A DNA stretch of 64,000 bases, taken from Bacteroidaceae bacterium. GTDB lineage: Bacteria; Pseudomonadota; Alphaproteobacteria; RF32; CAG-239. How positions within the stretch are numbered: position 1 is the first letter of the stretch; each line of letters starts with the position of its first letter. The translations under genes and the position numbers were made by a program. Below, piece after piece: positions 8,400 through 13,777 of this stretch. The notes below the pieces were generated by a model. That model was not told the origin of the DNA. It saw only the letters and a program-made list of their open reading frames with translations, and made no database searches. The DNA is taken from contig CAVIDY010000002.1 of assembly GCA_963641885.1 (NCBI GenBank), positions 18,811 to 82,810 of the forward strand, written 5' to 3'.

Positions 8400-11300
8400 T
8401 TACCATGCTTCGTTATATTTCAACGTTGGGTCATTCAACCTATTTAAATATTTACCATTAGTCGAATCAACCTTTTCATAATCAATTGCACCTGTCATAT
8501 CCTGCATATATTTATAGCCATCTACAAAGTAATCTTTTTCTGCACTATCTTCATAGCCATGAAATAGGTTTGTTCTATCAAAGTAGCAATATACCGTTGC
8601 ATATCCTTCTATTGATCCTCTCAATACCGGAAATACATTCCAATAGTAACTTTCTATTTTATTGTTACTTGGGGTAGTGCCTATAAATGCATCATACTTA
8701 GATTTAGGATACAAAAATCCAATAATTGCTGACCAACCTTGATAAATACCTTTTTCACTCTTTAATTTAGTCGTCAGAGCTTTTAATCTTGTGCTTTGTT
8801 GGAACATCAACGGCGCAGATGGTTGATAAGAAGCATTAGATTGTAGAACATAAGTACTTGTTTTTACGTTACTGATATCAGCAGTGCCTTTTTCAGCACC
8901 TACAGTTACAGGTATTGTAGTAGCAGTAGTACTATCTTTATCAACCACCATACCGACTTTACTAAATGACGGTCTATCCGCTGGAGTTGCTACTGCAGTT
9001 ACTTGTTCTTTGCTTGGAGTGTCTGGTAATATAAAATATCTATCATATGTTTTGTCACTAGCTTGAGTACCTGCCCCATGTACTGAGCCTGCTTGCGCCA
9101 TTTCCCAGCTTGCCGGAGTCAAGGTTATCACACGACCATATCCAGGAGGACATTGCGGCGCTGGCACAACCCCCATAAACGGCGATGCCCAACTGTCTTC
9201 TTTGCTCATATCCAATGTCTCATCAGGATCTATATCTTGATTCTTTTTTTGGGCTTCTGAATACAACTCATCATCTGCACTAAAATCCCAATTTCCTACT
9301 TTTGTTTCAGAAATGGTATTGTTAACCACGTAAATACCTTTATTGATAAAGTCAGGTAAAATATCACTCAGACGGGCTCCGCCGCGAGTGGTTAATTTGA
9401 TATCGTGCATAACTGAAGTATACGCCGGATTTACCATATAGGTATCATAAGCAACGTCATGGTTAGATCCATTATAATTACTAAAGTCCTTTGTAGCAAG
9501 TATAGGAAATTCAGCGCCGTATGTTTTATTCGTAACAGCATTACCATTGCTACCATAAGCCAAATTGTTTGCGACAAAGCGGGAGGCGGCAACTACACCT
9601 TTACCCTCTAACGCGCCGGTTGTTGTAGCAGGTTTACTATTTTCTCCGCGGACTTCCATATATCCCTTACGGATATATACAGTACCAGGTTCAGTATCAC
9701 TATAATTATTGGTGGTGCTAGTAGCGCCTTGGTCGATATAAACAAGGTTGGAATAATCACCCGCTGTGCTATTCGGCACGATGTTTACACCGGCTCTTAC
9801 ATTATATTGACCGATAGAAACATGATATTTTCCATTCTCTACACTTTCTGTTCCGCGTCCAACTTGACCGGATTTGGAGTCACCAATAAGAACGTTGCCA
9901 TGCATAGCAATATCATACGGCTGCAGATATCCTGCTTGGTTACTGCCTGCAGAGGTGAACATATCTTGAAAAGCATAGGAGTTTGGATTAGAATTTGCGC
10001 GAACACTAAACACATACCGTCTATCGGCAGTTGCATCATGATAATATAATCCGCCTACACCGATATTAAAGTTAGCGTCAGCCAAATCTACCGAACCTTG
10101 ATTAAACAAAGTTCTTGTCTCGTTTTCTGCTCCCTCAATGGTTAATGTTTTATTTTCCATTATAGATCTAATACCGCCACCGTACAGCACCGAAACAGCT
10201 GGTGCGGCAGAATCCGCTGTTTTATTACCGTGAAGCAAAAATAAGCCCGCAGCTTCATCATTTGCATCAGCTCCACCGGTTGCCAACATAATTTGATTCT
10301 CTCGAAATTCAGCTCCAGTTATGTTGTCATCGCCAGTATTTTGAATTGTGACGCCATCTTCATTGGCGGTCAGCCATTTTTCGCTGTCGTCGATATTTTT
10401 TGAGCCAACTGAAAGCGTTGCCGCACGTATTTTTTGCGTATCCAACTGACGAGTTGCCAACAAACCATCTATTTTAGTGTTTGCACCAACTCTAACCTGG
10501 AATAGCGGACTATTGTTATACGTTATTTCATCTAAATTTGCCCCAGGATATGTAGCACTTTTTATTCCATTTTCTAAGATGACAACTCTATCCTTTATGT
10601 TTGCCTCATTATTTTCAAAAGTATAATATGGCTTCAACTGCATAACATTTCCCATAAAATTCATATCTTCTTTTGTTGCTTTTATGGCATAAGTTCCATC
10701 TGCTCGTCCATCAATATACCCGATTTTCACATCATTCCAGACGTCCACATTTGAAGCTAAATTCACATCTCCCAAGTTTGTCAGCGAGCCGTCGGCTGTG
10801 GCGTTGCCGTTGGTGTCAACCTTAAAGTGGAAGTCTTCAGTTGTTGTGTCGCCCTCTGTAATCAGATTACGTCCAAAGCCCAAACGATTTGCATCGGCTT
10901 TAAATTGTTCTCCCGCCGCAATCAAATTGCCTTGAATAAAGGCGTCCGGTTTGCCGAAACCGTCAGCGATATAAAGTCCATAAGTAGAGTTCTCAATATT
11001 GTCGTTCTCTGCACCAACAATCAAGCTTTTAATATTGCGGATACTAAATGTTTTTTGATGATTTTCATTATTATACACATCGTAGGTATTATCAACACCG
11101 CCCATGTATAAATCCGTGCGCATACTGTTTTTCCACAATGTGTTAGGATCGTTACCGGCATCGCGTCCGCGCTGCAGGTATTTATCCATATCAATTTCGT
11201 TGCCAGTCGCGGCACTGATGGTGTCCGCCGACGCCGTCACAATGGAATATTGAGCCGCATCATCTCCATCGGGAAACACTTCGCTATATTCATCGCCTTC

Positions 11301-11801
11301 AAGTTTCCAAATACCGCCGATACCGCGGGCTTTTTTCTCGCCAGTCACATAACCGCCGCTAGAACCAATCAGCGAGGCAATGCGCGAAGTACGCTCTTGT
11401 CCAATATCGGTGTTGGTTTTAAACAGCGCAAACGTGGTCAGGTTATTTCCCTGTTTGGCAATAGCGATTTCAGGCTTGCCGTAATTATACAGCGCCTTGT
11501 CAATTTTAAAGCCATACGGCAGATACGAATCAATTAACGGTAGATCCAATTTACGGATTTTCTGTGTTTCACCCATATCTGCAATAATGGTGGAGTAGTT
11601 TGCGCCCACATAGTCGTTTGCCGCGTTCATAATAGTGCGAATGGTGGACGCAGTGTTGATGTCTTCTACCTCCATGGTTCTTTCCGCCGACTTTTTATAC
11701 ATGGTCGGGGTAACAACGGCGATAAGTCCCAGCATAGCCAGGGCTTCAATCATCAAACCACCCCTCTGCGCTATAGATTTTGAGATATTACGACGTTTCA
11801 T
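8400..11801 (-). CDS. Giant (1133 aa) secreted protein with a type IV prepilin-like (class III) N-terminal signal; candidate pilus-associated adhesin
   Basis: Strong AAGGAG Shine-Dalgarno 8 nt upstream. The N-terminus MKRRNISKSIAQRG|GLMIEALAMLGLIAVV has a basic leader, a G before the cleavage site, Glu at +5 and a 20-aa hydrophobic segment. The remainder is Gly/Asn/Thr/Asp-rich and adhesin-like. Confidence 0.6.
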   Translation of the reverse strand: MKRRNISKSIAQRGGLMIEALAMLGLIAVVTPTMYKKSAERTMEVEDINTASTIRTIMNAANDYVGANYSTIIADMGETQKIRKLDLPLIDSYLPYGFKIDKALYNYGKPEIAIAKQGNNLTTFALFKTNTDIGQERTSRIASLIGSSGGYVTGEKKARGIGGIWKLEGDEYSEVFPDGDDAAQYSIVTASADTISAATGNEIDMDKYLQRGRDAGNDPNTLWKNSMRTDLYMGGVDNTYDVYNNENHQKTFSIRNIKSLIVGAENDNIENSTYGLYIADGFGKPDAFIQGNLIAAGEQFKADANRLGFGRNLITEGDTTTEDFHFKVDTNGNATADGSLTNLGDVNLASNVDVWNDVKIGYIDGRADGTYAIKATKEDMNFMGNVMQLKPYYTFENNEANIKDRVVILENGIKSATYPGANLDEITYNNSPLFQVRVGANTKIDGLLATRQLDTQKIRAATLSVGSKNIDDSEKWLTANEDGVTIQNTGDDNITGAEFRENQIMLATGGADANDEAAGLFLLHGNKTADSAAPAVSVLYGGGIRSIMENKTLTIEGAENETRTLFNQGSVDLADANFNIGVGGLYYHDATADRRYVFSVRANSNPNSYAFQDMFTSAGSNQAGYLQPYDIAMHGNVLIGDSKSGQVGRGTESVENGKYHVSIGQYNVRAGVNIVPNSTAGDYSNLVYIDQGATSTTNNYSDTEPGTVYIRKGYMEVRGENSKPATTTGALEGKGVVAASRFVANNLAYGSNGNAVTNKTYGAEFPILATKDFSNYNGSNHDVAYDTYMVNPAYTSVMHDIKLTTRGGARLSDILPDFINKGIYVVNNTISETKVGNWDFSADDELYSEAQKKNQDIDPDETLDMSKEDSWASPFMGVVPAPQCPPGYGRVITLTPASWEMAQAGSVHGAGTQASDKTYDRYFILPDTPSKEQVTAVATPADRPSFSKVGMVVDKDSTTATTIPVTVGAEKGTADISNVKTSTYVLQSNASYQPSAPLMFQQSTRLKALTTKLKSEKGIYQGWSAIIGFLYPKSKYDAFIGTTPSNNKIESYYWNVFPVLRGSIEGYATVYCYFDRTNLFHGYEDSAEKDYFVDGYKYMQDMTGAIDYEKVDSTNGKYLNRLNDPTLKYNEAW

Positions 11802-11830
11802 CTTCGTTCTCCTTATTCTCCACTATTATC

Positions 11831-12646
11831 CTACTGCTGAACATGGCAGTGTCCGCCGCTATCGGCGTTTCGGTATTTGTCAAATGCAAACAAGCAAGGC
11901 TTGCCCTGCATACACTTTTCTTGAAATGCTTTAGAGGCGTCATCTGATCCAATATAAAAAACCTTCGGAAACACAAAGTTTATATACTTAGCAATTGAAC
12001 CTTTCGCATTTTGCGAATTCTTTTCATACATAATTTGAATTGCCGTACGCCCCACCAAATGGCATTTAGCGGTTGAGCCGGTGCCTTCGCACCACGTCCA
12101 GCCCATATTTTTAACTCCGGAAAGCTCTTTTGCCAAATAGTTGGTAAAATTCGGGGTCGGCGCAACCATTTTTACTTTGCGTGAAGATTCGCCTTCGGTG
12201 ATAGTAACTTCGGTCTCGGTTTTGGAATACCAGCGTTCCGGTATTTTGGCAAAAGAAATGGCATATTTGTTTTTGCTGCCTTCATCGCTGCTGCAACGCT
12301 TTACGTTTGCTCCGTTTTGTATGTTGTCGTCAAAGCAATAAATGGCGTGCGTGGATTCCGTAACGATGTTGTTCATATCATAACCCAAAGGCAGGTTGTC
12401 TTCCATTTTGCTCAGGCAGTTATTTTCTTCTGTGCATTTAAACGGAATGTCATAATTTCCACTTTGCCCGTTATAAATCATTTCGCACTCGGTGCCGCGA
12501 TAAAACGCAAGGTGTTCCGCCCGAAAACGGTTTACTACCGTGGCGGCTTTTATCTCAGTGAATACGCCGGCTTTGTCCTCGCGCGGAGAGGTGTTGAGAA
12601 AACTCAGCGCCACCATTATCGTTGCAAGTAAAATCCAAATATACAT
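11831..12646 (-). CDS. Hypothetical secreted or membrane-anchored Cys-containing protein (271 aa), first gene of the operon with the giant pilin-like protein
   Basis: N-terminal hydrophobic signal MYIWILLATIMVALSFL and AGG Shine-Dalgarno. There is a 30-bp gap to the downstream gene. A promoter-like TTGTGA...TATAAC lies upstream. Confidence 0.55.
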   Translation of the reverse strand: MYIWILLATIMVALSFLNTSPREDKAGVFTEIKAATVVNRFRAEHLAFYRGTECEMIYNGQSGNYDIPFKCTEENNCLSKMEDNLPLGYDMNNIVTESTHAIYCFDDNIQNGANVKRCSSDEGSKNKYAISFAKIPERWYSKTETEVTITEGESSRKVKMVAPTPNFTNYLAKELSGVKNMGWTWCEGTGSTAKCHLVGRTAIQIMYEKNSQNAKGSIAKYINFVFPKVFYIGSDDASKAFQEKCMQGKPCLFAFDKYRNADSGGHCHVQQ

Positions 12647-13199: not shown

Positions 13200-13458
13200 T
13201 TTAATTTTCCTTGTTTTAACCACCTGTTATCATAATATTGTTCGGAGGAAATGTAAATTTTTATTTTTAATTAGAGGGGAACGGCTTAATGCGCAGCCTT
13301 TAATCAGCCTTTCCGCAAATTATGCGGAGATTAGCGTGCATTTTCTCCGCAAACACAAGATAAAAATGCGTTGACTGAGTTATTCAAGCCCTATCGGGGT
13401 TCGATTCACTCCATATTATTCTGCTCCAAACATAAAGCCCCGACAAGCGGGGCTATGT

Positions 13459-13477
13459 TGGAGCAGATGAGGGGAAA
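13459..13477 (-). repeat. Direct repeat of the tRNA-Gly 3' end, 17 nt exact (tggagcagatgagggga), 172 bp from the tRNA
   Basis: It is identical to 13649-13665. It is flanked by a hairpin and by an opposite-strand degenerate copy at 13390-13429 (cggggttcgattcactcc...ctgctcca). Confidence 0.8.
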
Positions 13478-13615
13478 ACTTGATTGCTACAAATCGCTGC
13501 CCTTCGCTAACGCTCGTTTGCTCTTTGGCAATCTGCGCCTTTCGGCAAAAATCTATCCACTGGATAGATTTTTTTCTCAAGCCCTCTCAGGGTTCGATTC
13601 CCCTCTATATAAAAA

Positions 13616-13648
13616 ACAAAAAGCACCCTAATGGGTGCCTTTGTTTTT
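13616..13648. terminator. Bidirectional rho-independent terminator adjacent to the tRNA-Gly 3' end
   Basis: gcaccctaatgggtgc hairpin flanked by T-runs on both strands. An inverted T-arm copy (cagggttcgattcccctc) lies at 13583-13605. Confidence 0.6.
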
Positions 13649-13722
13649 TGGAGCAGATGAGGGGAATCGAACCCCCGTTATAAGCTTGGGAAGCTTCTAT
13701 TCTACCATTGAATTACATCTGC
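13649..13722 (-). tRNA. tRNA-Gly (anticodon CCC)
   Basis: The reverse complement GCAGATG-TA-ATTC-AATGGTA-GAAT-A-GAAGC-TTCCCAA-GCTTA-TAAC-GGGGG-TTCGATT-CCCCT-CATCTGC-T-CCA folds as a cloverleaf. The acceptor stem is perfect and the T-loop is TTCGATT. Confidence 0.8.
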
Positions 13723-13777
13723 AAAATCAATGCTTGCATTAAAGCGTAAAACCACGCCCTTTGCAAGCATTTTTTTA

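Follow-up and report, generated by a model that had tools for sequence, protein, structure and literature searches.

Repeats behind a tRNA-Gly gene belong to a conserved, hairpin-rich cassette of gut alphaproteobacteria built from the 3′ end of the tRNA

Introduction

When short copies of the 3′ end of a tRNA gene lie behind that gene, are they the scars of a lost element or parts of something still in place? Islands and prophages classically integrate at tRNA genes, and repeats of a tRNA 3′ end are routinely taken as such scars when they are short. The question is raised here by the tRNA-Gly(CCC) gene in a 64,000-nucleotide stretch of alphaproteobacterial DNA (assembly GCA_963641885.1, contig CAVIDY010000002.1; the whole stretch is called the window below). 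A first-pass annotation, made from the letters alone, had noticed direct and inverted copies of the 3′ end of this tRNA and read them as remnant attachment (att) sites, separated by almost empty DNA, of an excised or decayed element or of a reusable integration hotspot.

We find that the repeats behind tRNA-Gly are not scars of a lost island. They belong to a conserved, hairpin-rich cassette of gut alphaproteobacteria that is built from the tRNA's own 3′ end, and the window holds one complete copy (13459–13648) and one truncated copy (13384–13457) of this ∼190-bp non-coding unit, arranged head to tail. What is conserved is the scar interval itself, a gene-less ∼190 bp that varies in copy number and type among close strains of an uncultured gut lineage.

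Results

The tRNA-Gly(CCC) gene occupies 13649–13722 on the minus strand, encodes its CCA, and is called both by ARAGORN and by Rfam (RF00005, 65.7 bits; gathering score 29). Its final 18 nt plus one extra base run from the end of the T-loop through the 3′ strands of T-stem and acceptor to CCA and the base that follows; together they make up the sequence TTGGAGCAGATGAGGGGAA, which is found at 13648–13666 and again as an exact direct copy at 13458–13476 (both on the minus strand), with 171–172 bp between the copies. The repeat had been measured at 17 nt; it is real, and 19 nt long. These are its only two copies in the 64 kb (chance expectation 0.01; 0 of 100 shuffles gave two).

Two further copies of the T arm and acceptor, on the opposite strand, had been described as degenerate att remnants. 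Both are present and share TCAAGCCCTMTCRGGGTTCGATTC, a direct repeat of the plus strand (13384–13407 and 13577–13600) that in both places is an inverted copy of the tRNA 3′ half. The proximal one contains a perfect 16-nt complement (100%) of the T arm, 13590–13605 against 13659–13674. The distal one, at 13386–13429, is a degenerate 3′ half that extends to CCA and carries a 5-nt insertion. They are a fixed component of the cassette design instead of independent att remnants. The two strong hairpins recognized at first sight (13436–13454 and 13619–13642) both score as intrinsic terminators, a GC-rich hairpin followed by a T run. A third palindrome is likewise real, but had been placed at 13543–13563, ∼8 nt off its arms at 13547–13559 and 13561–13573. 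Apart from such minor shifts in position, the first description of these features holds. The tRNA-Phe gene of the same window has a plain terminator and no comparable structure.

Read in the orientation of the tRNA, each cassette consists of the same parts in the same order: an intrinsic terminator; an inverted copy of the T arm of the tRNA; a small hairpin whose end directly copies the 5′ strand of the T-stem and continues into TTCGA; a core of ∼100 nt, made of a palindrome, a GAAA hairpin and a long-range helix around an AGCGA-rich sequence; and finally what remains of the T-loop, with the 3′ strands of T-stem and acceptor and the CCA. The whole measures 150–250 bp. In the complete cassette of the window, the terminator is a hairpin that we call type B (GCACCC-ATTA-GGGTGC, flanked by tracts of A and T, 13619–13642), which the terminator scan matches on both strands. 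It is followed on the minus strand by the inverted T arm (invT-B, 13586–13612, which includes the perfect complement) and by the segment 13577–13592, which combines hairpin a (CCCT-GAG-AGGG, 13582–13592) with a degenerate T-stem 5′ strand and first five T-loop bases (AGGGCTTGA, 13577–13585); clean counterparts of this left half are found in four related loci (L056, L023, L133 and L141). The core then begins with a perfect 13-bp palindromic hairpin (AAAAATCTATCCA / TGGATAGATTTTT, 13547–13573), whose stem covaries among genomes. A small GCC-GAAA-GGC hairpin and a GGCGCAG motif come next (13537–13546, minus strand; conserved columns in alignment A2), and then the covarying long-range helix d (13482–13533, minus strand, with arms at 13524–13533 and 13482–13493), which surrounds a conserved GAGCAA..AGCGA-rich loop. 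The distal copy of the direct repeat closes the cassette. Beyond it lie a terminator hairpin of type A (AGCCCCG-CTTGT-CGGGGCT, 13436–13454, found by the same scan) and the degenerate inverted tRNA 3′ half (invT-A, 13384–13429, minus strand), which together form the stub of the second cassette; invT-A is homologous to the distal stub in L010 and leads into the chromosomal flank.

Is this arrangement peculiar to one genome? The window locus is flanked by genes for NUDIX, DUF805, ComEC and LpxB, and an LpxB-based scan of species-representative genomes gave 80 loci from uncultured gut and rumen Alphaproteobacteria, to which a metagenome scan with the tRNA body added 23. The inverted T arm is present in 34 of the 44 tRNA-Gly(CCC) loci with at least 150 nt of downstream sequence (not de-duplicated), and a downstream repeat in 29 of them. 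Where at least 600 nt are available (35 loci), 15 have no extra repeat, 17 have one and three have two. The interval between the repeats can be aligned across genomes (alignments A1 and A2) and keeps one order throughout: terminator, GAAKCGAAC (the inverted T-loop), small hairpin, palindrome of 10–16 bp, GAAA hairpin, GGCGMAG, long-range helix and repeat. The helix encloses GAGCAAGC and the AGCGA-rich sequence, and some lineages have an extra hairpin before the repeat. Beyond the last repeat there is always one more terminator, mostly with an inverted T arm, and then a lineage-specific flank; distal units are shortened to varying degrees. More distant relatives (L028, L032 and L035) have a plain tRNA followed by a terminator.

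These comparisons bear directly on the classical explanation, in which the repeats are attL and attR of an excised or decayed island or prophage that encoded its own integrase. The repeat does span the usual tRNA-Gly att segment, the genes past the array differ among strains (NUDIX, Fic or other), and one relative (L038, see below) has an island with a P4-type integrase at a tRNA-Lys fragment nearby. However, a large element between the repeats is found in none of the 35 loci, and the first-pass annotation had itself named the lack of an occupied variant among relatives as evidence against an island. Instead, a ∼170-bp interval with the same parts is kept across species that are near synonymous saturation. 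The window encodes no integrase, and the integrase in L038 targets another tRNA, at the anticodon loop. We therefore regard this explanation as largely refuted and very improbable. What survives of the earlier reading is the idea of a reusable recombination site. The site is dynamic, with the empty sites described next, zero to two extra repeats and variable neighbouring genes.

Two loci (L144 and L146) are empty sites, where the tRNA, terminator, inverted T arm and hairpin are joined straight to the flank that in L002, L005 and L145 lies behind the distal stub. An occupied site is thus an empty site plus a unique core of ∼92 nt and one extra copy of a ∼105-bp long direct repeat, which comprises repeat, terminator, inverted T arm and hairpin. 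These long repeats are often identical within one genome (L006, L011, L016 and L026). Three independent assemblies (L006, L007 and L016) stop exactly 252 nt past the tRNA, within the second repeat unit, which suggests that the arrays break short-read assemblies.

Arrays are also mixed in composition. In the window, the terminator nearer to the tRNA is of type B and the distal one of type A, while L002 and L003 have the opposite order, with the type A hairpin adjoining the tRNA. One locus (L009) holds two differing cassette variants, another (L141) combines two core families within one array, and a third core type is found in L024. By LpxB the closest genome is L002 (0.72 identity at four-fold sites), yet its core is only 0.66 identical to that of the window; cassette type does not follow host relatedness. 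The downstream repeats, in contrast to the inverted T arms, follow the tRNA closely: 28 of 31 match their own tRNA at 18 of 18 positions, across five acceptor-stem variants, while among 58 copies of the inverted T arm only 26 have no mismatch. In L005 and L145, the tRNA ends in CATCCGC and the repeat 175 nt past it reads CATCTGC, a variant of the clade of the window, so that the cassette or its distal repeat may stem from another lineage.

The structure of the core on alignment A2 was drawn by hand; RNAalifold on the raw alignment gave none. The hand-drawn structure has 82% canonical pairs compared with 69% after shuffling, and 20 of its 35 pairs show changes on both sides. Its covariation score of 0.314 exceeds both controls, 0.130 for shuffled alignments (none of 500 reaches the observed value) and ∼0.1 when the partners are slid. 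For helix d, 97% of cells are paired and four of six pairs are altered on both sides, with variants such as GATTGC/GCAATC, GTTTTCT/AGAAAAC, GGTTGC/GCAACC and GTTTGC/GCAAAC. The z-scores for the fold of the window unit are −4.35 (tRNA strand) and −3.77 (opposite strand). Taking the four-fold sites of LpxB as the comparison, the core is 0.85–0.87 identical to that of the window in four loci (L005, L007, L009b and L011) where these sites are 0.40–0.56 identical; the four-fold sites of ComEC, which were out of frame, were left aside. The interval that had seemed almost empty and decayed is a module that is conserved and covaries, and it occurs in most related genomes as well as behind other tRNAs. 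Its helices are almost purely Watson–Crick, with one or two G.U wobbles observed, and counts of G.U against A.C pairs contain too few non-Watson–Crick pairs to choose a strand. With nearly all pairs Watson–Crick, either strand, and RNA as well as single-stranded DNA, is compatible with the pattern.

One explanation of this constraint is that the core encodes a small RNA with a defined structure, be it a tRNA 3′-trailer RNA or one of a series of tandem small RNA genes read in the direction of the tRNA, each ending at its own terminator. The antisense T arm and the mimic of the tRNA 3′ end would then be functional parts, kept matched to the neighbouring tRNA. The covariation, the pairing of helix d, the fold z-scores and the conservation of the core above four-fold sites all favour such an RNA, as do the conserved unpaired motifs (GGCGCAG, GAGCAAGC and AGCGAA) between variable helices and the canonical terminator that closes every unit. 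In addition, the first hairpin of a second core family (described below) has mostly GNRA-type loops on the tRNA strand (GGGA, GCAA and GGAA, read by eye), and both G.U wobbles observed fall on that strand. However, a strong terminator precedes each unit, and a promoter scan of the window together with inspection of the alignment, on both strands, returned weak, non-conserved matches only. The near-absence of G.U pairs is unusual in structured RNA. Rfam 15 gave only the tRNA at gathering score and nothing credible at E up to 10. At least three core types occur on one tRNA-derived frame, and presence and absence in close strains, together with the swapping of types, suggest dispensability. On balance, a small RNA is possible but doubtful, and is the main rival of the account favoured below.

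The known RNAs that come closest are those derived from 3′ external transcribed spacers (3′ETS). In E. coli, 3′ETS-leuZ is a structured non-coding segment that adjoins a tRNA on its 3′ side, shares its strand and extends to the terminator of the operon. The cassette shares with these RNAs a structured non-coding segment behind a tRNA on its strand, but it is separated from the tRNA by a strong terminator, is repeated in numbers that vary, and has copies of the tRNA 3′ end on both sides.

Other kinds of gene product were rejected. No reading frame is conserved through the core across variants; open reading frames (ORFs) do span it, but the frame through the repeat differs by variant (FSPHLLQ in one, FPLARS in another), which argues against a small protein. 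A transfer-messenger RNA (tmRNA), permuted or not, was not called by ARAGORN, and the sole Rfam match to one scores 11.7 bits. Hammerhead-like motifs (CGAAA and GATGAG) are present, but judged by eye their order and core bases are unsuitable.

The cassettes are not confined to tRNA-Gly. The profile of the Gly cassette also matches behind tRNA-Arg(CCU) (L040 and L043), behind tRNA-Glu(CUC) (L017) and at an inverted tRNA-Lys(UUU) fragment (L038), and by eye a related cassette is seen behind tRNA-Thr(GGU) (L062 and L052). A second core family (AAGCGAAAGGC, a hairpin, and GGTCGGC..GCCGATGAGCGC) lies behind tRNA-Pro(UGG) in L056, tRNA-Asn(GUU) in L023, tRNA-Val(UAC) in L032 and tRNA-Ser(GGA) in L133. 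Most of the non-Gly cassettes carry the inverted T arm of their own tRNA, and the complete ones (Arg, Pro, Asn and Val) also repeat its 3′ end. Truncation or absence of the repeat marks the modules of Glu, Ser and Thr, while that of Lys has neither repeat nor inverted T arm. Nearly all copies adjoin tRNAs and are not scattered. No cassette structure was seen at the 15 tRNA-Leu(UAG) loci and four tRNA-Phe loci examined.

The least decayed copies locate the core precisely. In these, the core lies between the repeat, on its far side, and a direct copy of the 5′ strand of the T-stem with TTCGA, on its near side, and the two halves are exactly contiguous in the tRNA. The junctions read GTAGGTTCGA | ATCCTATAG... 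for Pro (L056), GTTGGTTCGA | ATCCGACAG... for Asn (L023) and GGGGGTTTGA | TTCCCCTC... for Gly (L141). The contiguity of the halves places the core at T-loop position 58|59 of a second, 5′-truncated copy of the tRNA.

The orientation of the segments alternates along the unit, from tRNA 3′ end and terminator to inverted copy, short loop and direct copy. Such an alternation is what serial template switches at hairpins would leave, and the cassettes could in principle be passive by-products of replication, formed by fold-back or template switching at the terminator hairpin and then multiplied by unequal crossing-over, with no function and no dedicated enzyme. The near-perfect palindromes, the frequent identity of the long repeats within a genome and the variable truncation of distal units are as expected in that case. 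We nevertheless think it unlikely, as it leaves unexplained a homologous ∼100-nt core at no fewer than eight different tRNA loci, the conservation of this core well above neutral sites, the heterogeneous arrays, and the consistent absence at tRNA-Leu(UAG) and tRNA-Phe.

The exact junction also raises the question of whether the core is itself a small transposon, specifically a miniature derivative of the single-strand IS200/IS605 type of insertion sequence (IS) that inserts 3′ of TTCGA in T-arm-like hairpins without duplication. The core directly follows TTCGA in the four loci with clean left halves, always within a duplicated tRNA fragment, and the insertion is precise and free of duplication in the Pro, Asn, Ser and Gly examples; there are hairpins near both core ends. 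One relative (L143) has a convergent gene for an IS200-family Y1 transposase (Pfam Y1_Tnp, E = 1.9e-38) ∼100–600 nt 3′ of tRNA-Gly(CCC), where it replaces the cassette architecture. However, that element has no sequence in common with the cassettes, neither the window nor the other loci yielded a Y1 transposase, and the hairpins of the left and right ends are dissimilar. Nor does such a transposon explain the inverted T arm and the duplicated terminator, or why nearly all copies are adjacent to tRNAs. We consider this origin very improbable. The cassettes also differ from MITEs (miniature transposable elements with inverted repeats): the inverted T arm can pair with the repeat across 8 bp, but the unit is not bordered by a short duplication.

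Discussion

The account that we favour, if only tentatively, is that the cassettes are non-autonomous integrative units, which recombine at the segment from T-loop to CCA with a recombinase encoded elsewhere in the genome and acting in trans. Each insertion would bring in a new tRNA 3′ end and terminator and shift the old ones outward, where they would appear as the downstream repeat. Array length would change further by recombination between the ∼100-bp long direct repeats. We infer that one strand could fold back on itself, with pairing between the inverted T arm and the split direct one, and so restore the duplex tRNA target, from which the core would branch off at the crossover point. Derived on paper, the observed arrangement would result if the top strand were exchanged at TTCGA|TT.

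We favour this account because the cassettes have tRNA-specific ends at many tRNAs, an exact junction in the T-loop, empty and multi-copy states, mixed arrays, and types that conflict with host relatedness. The other explanations, passive replication, a classical scar and an IS200/IS605 derivative, explain less than integration or a structured RNA, and these two are not mutually exclusive. The left boundary of the repeat also coincides with a known one. The bare 18-mer occurs in 43 viral contigs, either in unrelated tRNA-Gly genes or in prophage att fragments that begin exactly at TTCCCCTC, which makes the T-loop-to-CCA segment a genuine integrase crossover segment elsewhere, as in the integrative and conjugative element (ICE) ICEclc with its 18-bp site. 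The first-pass annotation had taken the repeat as the signature of an integrase: the segment is indeed the one that tRNA-Gly integrases use, but the window has no integrase-like ORF.

Several points weigh against integration. First, a double-stranded circle of 190 bp is a poor recombination substrate. Second, a core that is far better conserved than synonymous sites, with covarying helices and conserved unpaired motifs, is what one expects of a functional RNA, and at least three core families on one architecture mean that the architecture, instead of one element, may be what is propagated. Third, ordinary homologous recombination between the ∼100-bp repeats could give both the identity of the repeats and the changes in copy number. 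Finally, the enzyme and a parent element were looked for with negative results. The 64-kb window contains no integrase- or recombinase-like ORF, as judged by similarity to the L038 integrase and by the HxLRH motif, and none was found adjoining other arrays. The flanks of the loci examined hold no autonomous relative or larger repeat-bounded element, i.e., no distant repeat, and three cassette motifs have no true match in viral contigs.

The genes of the window appear to be housekeeping genes, with NUDIX, DUF805 and ComEC as neighbours of the array, and the two viral-contig motif matches that did arise are due to chance in GC-rich coding DNA. No longer version of a cassette was found in at least 100 related loci or in viral contigs, a search that did not extend to plasmid and ICE collections. 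A candidate for a large element sharing the left end of the cassette, in L136, is in fact a truncated cassette that runs into normal genes of the chromosome. The one integrase seen near a cassette is in L038 (14500–21152), where a P4-type enzyme (Phage_integrase and Arm-DNA-bind_3 domains) and island genes lie beside the inverted 46-nt 3′ fragment of tRNA-Lys(UUU) that bears its own cassette-like module; this integrase has no relative among the viral contigs.

How do the cassettes compare with known integrative systems? ICEclc recombines at 18-bp repeats that are identical to the 3′ end of a tRNA-Gly gene, and the tRNA is restored by the copy on the incoming DNA (PMC5812530). The same 18-nt segment is repeated here. 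However, ICEclc measures ∼100 kb and carries its own integrase, while the cassettes have ∼170 bp and no gene between the repeats, and their inverted and split direct T arms are not known as parts of the ICEclc att site. Cis-mobilizable elements (CIMEs) lack genes for integration and transfer, keep attL and attR, form tandem series where a target gene has its 3′ end and need a helper (PMC5704250). With repeats and no gene between them, the cassettes fit the bare definition, but CIMEs are kilobase-sized decayed ICEs or integrative and mobilizable elements (IMEs) with remnants of these, whereas the cassettes are conserved, span 150–250 bp and have no detected parent; derivation from an ICE or IME, by which a CIME is recognized, was not seen for them. 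In the tandem ssrA islands of Dehalococcoides, successive integrations at one site have left multiple direct copies of a small-RNA gene's 3′ end (PMC3146451). Those islands carry genes and integrases, unlike the non-coding ∼170-bp cassettes.

The attC sites of integrons and the attP of phage CTX offer a different parallel. In folded att sites of the CTX and attC type, one strand could fold into a mimic of the duplex target. As in those systems, short cassettes are arrayed at a fixed site in an order and number that depend on the strain, and each terminates, as cassettes with an attC do, in a palindrome-bearing site of ∼100 nt that is better conserved in structure than in sequence. Unlike in integrons, the 64 kb revealed no IntI-like integrase and no attI, the anchor is a tRNA gene and the cassettes contain no ORF. 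The attC core motifs, RYYYAAC and GTTRRRY, are, by inspection, absent from the repeat ends, which read TTCCCCTC and GAGGGGAA.

No published description of such a cassette structure was found in full-text literature searches. It is conceivable, though we would not count on it, that the cassettes represent an undescribed recombination system of gut alphaproteobacteria, in which a single strand of the gene-less cassettes could fold into a mimic of the duplex tRNA gene, as a tRNA-anchored counterpart of attC or CTX-type folded att sites, or alternatively a new class of structured RNAs matched to tRNAs. If site-specific recombination is at work, these would be the smallest att-bounded elements known to us and would point to a recombinase that recognizes the T-loop, possibly acting on folded single strands; if the product is an RNA, a new tRNA-matched RNA class would result. 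In either case, the cassettes would be misinterpreted by any annotation pipeline in which these repeats count as att remnants, and the arrays also break metagenome assemblies at the tRNAs that bear them.

Flanking DNA

A conserved segment of ∼60 bp (13300–13362) lies between the array and the NUDIX gene and contains the inverted repeat TGCGGAGA / TCTCCGCA and a third copy, TTTGCGGA. The genes beyond it are NUDIX in the window and in L002, Fic-family genes in L010 and L144, and other DNA in L005, L145 and L146, and the segment may be a second variable junction. Downstream of NUDIX, the minus strand at 8400–12646 encodes proteins of 271 and 1133 amino acids without a Pfam match, the larger with a pilin-like N-terminus. 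Among the relatives with downstream genes listed, these two genes are common only to the window and L002, and may therefore be accessory cargo of a variable region. Besides the Fic-family genes that adjoin the Gly arrays of L010 and L144, genes with T5orf172/MUG113 and Fic/DOC domains are found just past the two-unit tRNA-Pro(UGG) array of L056 (571–2393).

On the other side of the tRNA, an inverted repeat, AAATCAATGCTTGCA / TGCAAGCATTTTTTT (13724–13776), lies between the stop codon of DUF805 and the 5′ end of tRNA-Gly. It is probably the terminator of DUF805, in which case tRNA-Gly should have a promoter of its own within ∼50 nt.

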